NCBI GenBank assembly: GCA_965221905.1
Contig: OZ244922.1
Span: 256,001-320,000, forward strand
DNA: 64,000 nucleotides
Direction: 5' to 3'
From: Chloroflexota bacterium
GTDB lineage: Bacteria > Chloroflexota > UBA11872 > VXOZ01
The notes under the pieces are model-generated. The model worked only from the letters and a program-made list of their open reading frames with translations. It did not search any database and was not told the DNA's origin. Each line of letters starts with the position of its first letter. Position 1 is the stretch's first letter. Of this stretch, positions 24,852 through 25,101 are shown one piece after another. The position numbers were made by a program, and so were the translations under genes.

Positions 24852-24959
24852 CGGGGACACTTTCGCGGTGAGGAGCTTGGGCACACTCTACCACGAGTTG
24901 TCACAGCGCCCTGAGCGCGTGGTAGACAGCGCGCGCGCCTGTATTGTATGATGTTTTGC

Positions 24960-25101
24960 AAGAGAAAGGAGGTGATGCCCATGGATGTAAGTTGTAAATC
25001 CAGGGCCGCCTCCGTTAGGTCTCGGTAACGAGACTACGGAGCGGCCGTTGGGAAATGAAGGAGCGCTATCGGTGCACGTGCACCGGGCGCTCCTTCTGTT
25101 T
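24960..25101 (+). ncRNA. Candidate small structured RNA with an extended SD and a 15-aa ORF (24981-25028)
   Basis: TAGACA-18-TATGAT promoter, AGAAAGGAGGTGAT, two strong hairpins. Confidence 0.5.

Follow-up and report, generated by a model that had tools for sequence, protein, structure and literature searches.

A putative small RNA family of Chloroflexota combining a long complement to the 16S tail, a mini-ORF and two mutually exclusive predicted helices

The DNA analyzed here (the window) is a 64,000-nucleotide (nt) stretch of the Chloroflexota bacterium assembly GCA_965221905.1 (contig OZ244922.1, positions 256,001 to 320,000 of the forward strand). Next to a divergent gene of 330 amino acids (aa), and followed downstream by a convergent gene of 75 aa, lies an element of ~145 nt in which a promoter, a segment complementary to the 3′ tail of 16S rRNA (segment A), a mini open reading frame (ORF), a long hairpin and a terminator form one unit. 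A first-pass annotation of the sequence had proposed these five parts (promoter, complement, 15-aa ORF, long hairpin and terminator-like hairpin), and each was recovered where it had been placed. Reading of positions 24400-25700 put all features at the following positions:

24923-24928, + strand: −35 box TAGACA, from the promoter scan; the block conserved in the genus starts here (GT[A/G]GACA, 17 sequences)
24947-24952, + strand: −10 box TATGAT, a consensus match after an 18-nt spacer
24963-24976, + strand: segment A, an extended Shine-Dalgarno (SD) site, AGAAAGGAGGTGAT, a 14-nt perfect complement to the organism's own 16S 3′ tail
24968-24974 and 24977-24980, + strand: 5′ arm of helix P1, within and just after segment A
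24981-25028, + strand: mini-ORF of ATG, 15 codons (MDVSCKSRAASVRSR) and TAA; the ATG lies 8 nt after GGAGG (24968-24972)
24982-24986 / 24998-25002, + strand: apical hairpin of P1, TGGAT/ATCCA with an 11-nt loop, from fold and alignment
25003-25013, + strand: segment B, GGGCCGCCTCC, an anti-SD within the ORF that mimics the 16S tail and pairs with A (helix P1) or A′ (helix P2)
25004-25046, + strand: long hairpin, a P2-type fold
25019-25034, + strand: inner hairpin GTCTCG-GTAA-CGAGAC, whose loop contains the stop TAA (25026-25028)
25036-25046, + strand: segment A′, ACGGAGCGGCC, an SD-like copy of A and the 3′ arm of P2, from the consensus fold of the genus
25057-25096, + strand: intrinsic terminator, a nested GC-rich stem, then the T-rich tail TGTTTATCTGT (25097-25107)

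The putative transcript start lies at ~24959-24961, and the −10 box reads TATGAT, TAGAAT or TATGCT across the genus. A 156-nt RNA is predicted to fold at −76.6 kcal/mol (z = −6.2), and none of 200 shuffled sequences folded as well. The terminator stem alone accounts for −31.7 kcal/mol (RNAfold); a simple terminator scan skipped it, its loop and stem rules being unsuited to nested stems. In the minimum free energy fold of the element, GGAGGTG (24968-24974) plus GCCC pair with GGGC-CGCCTCC (25003-25013), giving P1, while the RNAalifold consensus of the genus pairs B with A′, giving P2. The 5′ arm of the long hairpin is thus itself an anti-SD, and P1 and P2 are therefore mutually exclusive; predicted duplex energies are −21.0 kcal/mol for A:B and −21.9 kcal/mol for B:A′. 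The long hairpin of the first-pass annotation is present, but as one of two exclusive folds, and the pairing of the SD with CGCCTCC (25007-25013) had been overlooked. Its other structural remark, a stop codon in a GNRA tetraloop, holds for the GTAA loop of this element but is no rule of the family, as the loop varies even within the genus (GGTAAC in 15 of 17 sequences, GCTAAC in one).

To establish how far the element extends among close relatives, a DNA search was made of 40 genomes, 16 from the same genus and 24 from others. The element was present in all 16 same-genus genomes at 87-93% identity over ~180 nt, and the 24 other genomes gave short, chance-like DNA matches only. Across the resulting 17 genus sequences, aligned identity runs from the −35 box to the T-run of the terminator, beyond which neither flank can be aligned. 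There is almost no variation at positions 24957-25013, synonymous sites included. All five pairs of the P1 apical hairpin (24982-25002) are invariant in 17/17 sequences, and the two variable columns between its arms are loop positions. Elsewhere, the inner hairpin (25019-25034) has one C-G to U-G change that keeps the pair, the inner stem of the terminator has one compensatory U-A to C-G change, and two P2 pairs vary (pair 63/85: UA 14, UG 2, CG 1; pair 66/84: GC 12, GU 4). Changes within the mini-ORF, counted by eye, comprise three synonymous and four non-synonymous substitutions, too few to decide on the mode of selection. The element occurs once in its own genome.

Both 16S genes of the genome end in GGATCACCTCCTTTCTA, so the 14-nt complementarity is valid for this organism and not just for the textbook consensus; the anti-16S complement of the first-pass annotation was thus borne out against the genome's own 16S 3′ ends. 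The 3.52-Mb genome holds three copies of the 14-mer, both strands counted: one in the element and one antisense to each of the two 16S genes. The predicted duplex of A with the 16S tail has an energy of −25.8 kcal/mol. Segment A is invariant in 17/17 genus sequences, and a complement of 12-14 nt is constant across lineages, which argues for real pairing with the 16S tail. Two further 13-nt anti-16S matches (AGAAAGGAGGTGA) were seen in this genome (G000:C1:1256582 and 1930120), the latter ~930 nt upstream of a 16S gene and on the opposite strand. In two species of the genus (loci L081 and L082; genomes G008 and G003), GAAAGGAGGTGATGC precedes a TTG start on a gene read by eye as that for ribosomal protein L10 (rplJ), and this rplJ-like gene is the sole other carrier of that 15-mer in either genome.

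Beyond the genus, related elements were sought with covariance models. A model built from the genus sequences (R1) gave two weak matches, in two genomes of another family of the class, both with the same long SD and with a 19-codon ORF starting at an ATG. A motif search in that family yielded eight loci of the same type, whose long hairpin carries compensatory changes in 18 of 47 predicted pairs. A model of those eight sequences alone (R2) recovered the element of the window at the same coordinates (E = 0.011 genome-wide) along with those of 12 of 16 sister species. Within the class, R2 matched 34 of 98 genomes, including 10/10 genomes of two further genera and 8/14 genomes of a third family, in which the ORFs have 29-30 codons. 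In a sample of 151 genomes of the phylum it matched 16, in loci carrying an SD, a start codon (ATG, GTG or TTG), a 14-31-codon ORF and a strong terminator. A third model (R3), built from 30 other Chloroflexota sequences with the genus excluded, scored the element at E = 5 × 10−8 (39.2 bits, positions 24959-25050) and matched 47 of the 151 sampled genomes (36 of 122 of high quality), with a single match in most.

Since models built without its own lineage (R2 and R3) score it significantly, the element belongs to a family, and the homologs called for by the first-pass annotation proved to be many. A DNA pattern scan of one genome per species gave at least 119 stretches, of which 80 were listed. 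The listed matches include many from Chloroflexota (Roseiflexus, Chloroflexaceae, Herpetosiphonaceae, Thermomicrobiales, Sphaerobacteraceae and Thermobaculum), and three of the listed records, titled only “Chloroflexota/Chloroflexi bacterium”, hold an element of the genus type. The same pattern gave 11 matches in viral contigs. The element of the window has the full design (extended SD, start codon, ORF running through B, stop before A′, exclusive helices and terminator). On these comparisons of sequence, it is a member of a conserved, mostly single-copy RNA family that is widespread in Chloroflexota and was previously uncatalogued. Two further loci were noted. At L157:5180-5213 (− strand), in an Anaerolineae metagenome-assembled genome (MAG), A and B form the same hairpin, here with no start codon, and an ordinary gene with a separate SD begins ~70 nt downstream; this may be a leader version of the closed helix. 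A Desulfovibrionaceae MAG (L159:4599-4743) holds a different element: its 12-codon, lysine-rich ORF is preceded by the same long SD, and a type II hammerhead ribozyme (53.2 bits) comes immediately after the ORF.

The two helices were then evaluated in the alignment of the commonest type, where A is the SD AAAGGAGGTGATGCCC, B is GGGCATCACC-like and lies inside the ORF, and A′ is GGTGATGCCC-like, duplicates the 3′ part of A and follows the stop. B pairs with the SD core GGAGGTG in the genus of the window and with GGTGATGCCC in the commonest type. For P1 (A:B), 270 of 270 alignment cells are paired, vs. 30-50% when the partner is slid, and all substitutions in B are transitions that keep G-U wobble pairing with the invariant A. 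For P2 (B:A′), 92.1% of cells are paired, and 5 of 11 pairs have changed on both sides (in 32 cells), so that the covariation asked for by the first-pass annotation is found family-wide. Neither the P2 score nor its percentage of paired cells was reached by any of 500 shuffles, and in an alignment-free comparison cognate B:A′ duplexes averaged −25.2 kcal/mol vs. −18.9 kcal/mol for non-cognate ones (0 of 5,000 permutations as good), figures whose significance is overstated because the sequences are related; the compensatory cases themselves are plain in the sequences despite this relatedness. When ensembles were forced into P1 or P2, the mean difference was +0.8 kcal/mol (standard deviation, 4.4), with 24 of 49 sites within 3 kcal/mol, so the two folds are predicted to be about iso-energetic. 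The consensus fold of the third family in the class has its SD paired with CACCTCC at the ORF stop; the genus of the window shares the CGCCTCCGTTAG motif with that family, in another reading frame.

The ORF was assessed at sites chosen by RNA features only (P1 ≤ −15 kcal/mol, P2 ≤ −18 kcal/mol and a terminator), for which 48 of 81 pattern sites qualified. Each of these 48 carries an ORF of 10-20 codons whose start codon stands at the canonical distance. In 49/49 sites the first in-frame stop comes after B and before the end of A′, vs. 2/49 and 1/49 in the other frames. The start codon and B are 18, 21 or 24 nt apart in 31/31 Chloroflexota members of the commonest type, meaning that insertions and deletions come in threes. 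The stop precedes A′ by 2-14 nt in 30 of these 31 (in the other, A′ starts 1 nt before the stop) and by ~10 nt in the element of the window. The encoded peptides are far less constrained. They are hydrophilic, range from acidic to basic in net charge between lineages, and comprise 15 aa in the genus of the window and 14-31 aa elsewhere; the frame of the ORF relative to B also differs among lineages. Their recurring residues (G-I-T, E-V and A-S) are the translation of B and of an internal GGAGG-like motif. Entropy of the loop codons peaks at second positions and is lowest at third positions (0.84/0.89/0.57 and 1.07/1.43/1.00 for positions 1/2/3). As the ORF is always kept and the peptide varies, selection seems to act on translation and not on the peptide sequence; the mini-ORF is probably translated, with the peptide as a by-product.

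The first-pass annotation had also considered a micropeptide gene. In such a gene, a peptide of 14-30 residues would be functional and the RNA folds would tune its synthesis. The conserved half of that proposal stands: no member lacks the ORF or its near-perfect ribosome site, and within a lineage the ORF keeps its length (19 aa for 11 of the 12 members in one family; 29-30 aa in 8/8 of another). The peptide half does not, as there is no amino acid-level conservation beyond the RNA-pairing stretches, second codon positions are the most variable and third the least, and charge, length and frame relative to B differ by lineage. We consider this explanation very unlikely. The remark in the first-pass annotation that the peptide is not a typical type I toxin fits the hydrophilic peptides and the mostly single matches per matching genome.

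A second alternative goes back to the 30S trap of the first-pass annotation. Here the element would be an untranslated decoy or sponge for 30S subunits, its long SD holding the 16S tail and its start codon and ORF having no role. The invariance of a perfect 12-14-nt complement across lineages would suit such a decoy, as would the absence of the 14-mer from the rest of the genome outside the rRNA genes and the strength of its duplex with the 16S tail; STAB-SD sequences likewise bind 30S subunits without translation. A sponge has no need of a helix that hides its own binding site, nor does it account for a start codon and closed ORF at all 48 RNA-chosen sites, for indels that preserve the frame or for the in-frame placement of the stop in 49/49. 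With a competing helix gating the SD and a conserved start codon after it, other readings fit better than a plain sponge, which we judge improbable.

A trans-acting small RNA (sRNA) was considered as well, in which B would be the seed that blocks the SDs of target mRNAs, A and A′ would mask this seed, and the ORF would be incidental. B is complementary to SD sequences by construction, and C- or CU-rich seeds that target SDs are known in Gram-positive sRNAs, e.g., RsaE/RoxS. Myxococcus xanthus sRNAs, one of them new and intergenic, also contact mRNAs near their SDs (preprint 10.1101/2025.09.11.675593), with no link to the Myxococcota look-alikes described below shown in the part of the preprint available. 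MXnc1, a candidate sRNA of that species, is named in the same preprint. Against an sRNA, B is paired in both folds and lies within an ORF whose start, frame and stop are conserved. Moreover, A is invariant while B drifts and yet stays complementary to it, a pattern that points to an outside partner for A and not for B. A trans-acting sRNA is therefore thought unlikely.

Genomic context separates the element from its neighbors. The 330-aa gene, whose translation begins with a signal-peptide-like N-terminus, and the 75-aa gene had no Pfam match. In 31 related loci, neighboring genes vary in kind and stand in either orientation. Together with conservation bounded by promoter and terminator and with unalignable flanks, this upholds the stand-alone RNA of ~140 nt proposed by the first-pass annotation. 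A cis-acting leader or attenuator, controlling a neighbor by read-through of the terminator, was considered because three competing segments, an ORF and a terminator resemble the trp and erm leaders, and because a gene begins 15-20 nt past the terminator in two genomes of a single family. In the genus of the window, A′ and the 5′ arm of the terminator also share GGAGCG, a weak resemblance to an attenuator. Nonetheless, the next gene downstream in the window is convergent, so that no regulated gene follows on the same strand, and no sharing between terminator and antiterminator was found. Terminators across the family are strong, with T-runs, and their stems covary freely and independently of A′, with which no conserved pairing was found in the family alignments. 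The varied neighbors in the 31 loci rule out this explanation for practical purposes, and we hold it to be extremely improbable.

Other candidates at the locus were rejected. An 85-aa ORF on the minus strand (24888-25145) ends in unconserved DNA, and 8 of 17 genus sequences have no minus-strand frame of ≥70 aa; a 49-aa ORF on the plus strand (25048-25197) crosses the terminator into unalignable DNA. For an antisense partner, no conserved minus-strand ORF was found in the 17 genus sequences and no minus-strand promoter in a scan of 24500-25800, although a small antisense RNA may still be encoded there. Clustering with translation-related genes was too patchy to build on (8 of 46 loci): a bL25/Ctc gene is convergent with the element in six (L208, L217, L151, L168, L174 and L204; Roseiflexus and Thermomicrobiales), an eRF1-like (baeRF) gene lies beside it in two (L143 and L170; Thermomicrobiales/Sphaerobacteraceae), and no pth-like gene was found near the loci examined. 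Elsewhere in the window, a tRNA gene lies at 18850-18922 (− strand, 70.7 bits). Just upstream of the 75-aa minus-strand gene is a perfect 28-nt palindrome (25618-25645; 12-pair stem, 4-nt loop) with 10 exact copies in the genome, which looks like a repetitive extragenic palindromic (REP)-like repeat. This palindrome is the deepest-covered part of the stretch in four metatranscriptome runs (summed contig depth, ~200-360), through many different contigs.

A similar design occurs outside the phylum. Among the listed matches of the pattern scan, 16 loci belong to Myxococcota (records of Cystobacter, Archangium, Corallococcus, Myxococcus, Hyalangium, “delta proteobacterium” and Myxococcaceae), two of them near-identical copies in one Cystobacter assembly. 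These look-alikes have a TTG start, an ORF of 14-16 codons, a GGCGTCCACCTCC-like B, a matching A′ and a terminator, and their start-to-B distance is 17 or 20 nt in one group and 18 nt in the other. R3 scored the look-alike loci at 15-29 bits, much of it from the pattern-fixed segment A, and its whole-genome scans missed the Myxococcus and Corallococcus genomes. The design may thus be shared by descent or by convergence. Neighboring genes were listed for five of the look-alikes, from four genera: on one side is an ABC-transporter-like gene and on the other a small ORF, after which comes a pyrG-like gene (both genes named by eye). In two loci (L205:4842-5315 and L198, oriented 1709-2182), a stop-free frame of ~158 aa follows the look-alike before the pyrG-like gene; it has no Pfam match and contains the conserved stretch ...KRGWDGWSCRHCPLR.... 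The look-alikes recall the Pxr sRNA, which is likewise a small conserved RNA with three stem-loops confined to the same myxobacterial genera (PMC5684412). Unlike them, Pxr is encoded immediately after pxrR, the gene for an NtrC-like regulator (PMC5684412), and not at the ABC-transporter-like/pyrG-like locus, so identity with Pxr is ruled out by locus.

Taken together, the element may be a translation-gated, bistable RNA with a mini-ORF, a reading that we put at about even confidence. A and A′ would compete for B: closed P1 would hide both SD and start codon, and open P2 would free both. P1 would leave the 5′ part of A single-stranded (AGAAA in the genus, AAAGGAG in the commonest type), and the free 16S 3′ tail of a 30S subunit could dock there. 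B would then be displaced and pair with A′, freeing the start codon, and a ribosome would translate the mini-ORF through B, breaking P2. That ribosome would stop just before A′, likely covering it, so that B could return to A and the RNA reclose. The net cycle would be one opening per 30S subunit and one closing per termination, with RNA stability, exposure of A′ or occupancy of 30S subunits as possible read-outs.

Several observations weigh against this reading. Opening driven by 30S subunits, resetting by translation and the physiological role are all steps that we infer. The putative promoter is a consensus match: TAGACA-18-TATGAT was the sole match of a sigma70-like scan of 24500-25800 (10 of 12 positions), and shuffled sequences averaged 0.8 such matches, so the scan alone is not significant. 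Support for P1 rests on compatibility and not on compensation, since A never varies and no double changes in A:B exist anywhere, and variation in the genus is too low for proof of P1 by covariation; for P2, the inflation by relatedness noted above applies. The scan pattern fixed segment A and the start of B and was the source of the 49 to 81 sites analyzed, making statements on A within that set circular. The ORF is intact in 16 of 17 genus sequences; in the other (L009/G012, alignment A2, column 74), a 1-nt insertion removes the stop. Metatranscriptome contigs (four runs, one study) include none over 24540-25205, a result that is uninformative, because absence cannot be read from contigs and small RNAs readily go missing. 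These four runs each hold 8-11% of the sampled words, and their contigs cover neighboring genes as relatives at ~90% identity, along with the repeated palindrome (here over 25618-25647). The G012 ORF would continue through the terminator; its insertion could be natural, giving a non-stop variant, or else result from misassembly of this 60-contig genome.

A further step would make the translation-gated element a natural “toehold switch” triggered by the free 16S tail: a mostly single-copy RNA of the housekeeping type, serving to gauge, buffer or try out 30S subunits competent for initiation. We find this step rather doubtful; were it true, the state or lifetime of the RNA would report the number of free ribosomes. 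Phylum-wide, usually single-copy, stand-alone RNAs are few (6S RNA, transfer-messenger RNA [tmRNA], signal recognition particle [SRP] RNA, RNase P RNA and Y RNA), and each of them revealed a core process. Three things come together in the present element: it can pair with the 16S tail over the longest possible stretch, it contains its own mimic of this tail, and it has a mini-ORF in which translation, and not the peptide, appears to be selected. If the proposed cycle is true, it would be a cellular RNA with the ribosome itself as ligand, and would offer a handle on long-SD pairing in vivo, on the gauging of free 30S subunits and on the translational resetting of RNA folds. Even with a modest role, the family is a clean natural three-segment RNA switch with good comparative support that is absent from Rfam 15.

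In Rfam 15, a scan of the whole window at the gathering threshold returned only the tRNA at 18850-18922, a permissive scan of 24800-25400 returned three microRNA models (E = 3.5-4.9, far below thresholds), and a scan of nine related loci gave no match at the element; no described family matches, on a check that the first-pass annotation had asked for. These scans gave no match of a tmRNA or tRNA model at the locus, and the ORF has a canonical SD, unlike the tag ORF of tmRNA. No description of such an RNA was found in the full-text literature searched, a coverage outside which most subscription journals lie. The closest known systems each share a part of the design. In the trp, pyrBI and ermC leaders, a short ORF is combined with mutually exclusive helices, and the position of the ribosome selects the helix; such leaders are known from sites ahead of the genes that they control. 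The element resembles them in having a short ORF with an unimportant peptide, at least three segments and exclusive helices, and differs in having no regulated downstream gene, a separate strong terminator and, as its contested segment, the SD of the ORF itself. Dual-function sRNAs (SR1/SR1P, RNAIII/hld, SgrS/SgrT and Spot 42/SpfP) are likewise small stand-alone transcripts with their own promoter and terminator and a small ORF; the known cases have a conserved functional peptide and a separate pairing region, whereas here the SD, the mimic and the competitor are conserved. STAB-SD sequences, the 5′-stabilizer SDs of Bacillus mRNAs, bind 30S subunits without translation and sit in the leaders of long mRNAs. 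They share with the element a long, near-perfect GAAAGGAGG-like SD near the 5′ end, which in their case binds 30S subunits strongly, and lack the start codon and competing helices; in the element, start codon, ORF and two-state switch are conserved. From AapA1-type toxin mRNAs, described as encoding hydrophobic toxins of ~30 aa and having an antisense RNA partner (PMC6733600), the element is set apart by hydrophilic, unconserved peptides and by its distribution, R3 having matched just once in most of the 47 genomes hit across the phylum; nor was a conserved minus-strand ORF found for it in the genus. Its likeness to the AapA1 mRNA of Helicobacter pylori lies in the RNA itself, where an anti-SD within the ORF is described that pairs with the mRNA's own SD to block translation, and where alternative hairpins succeed one another (PMC6733600).

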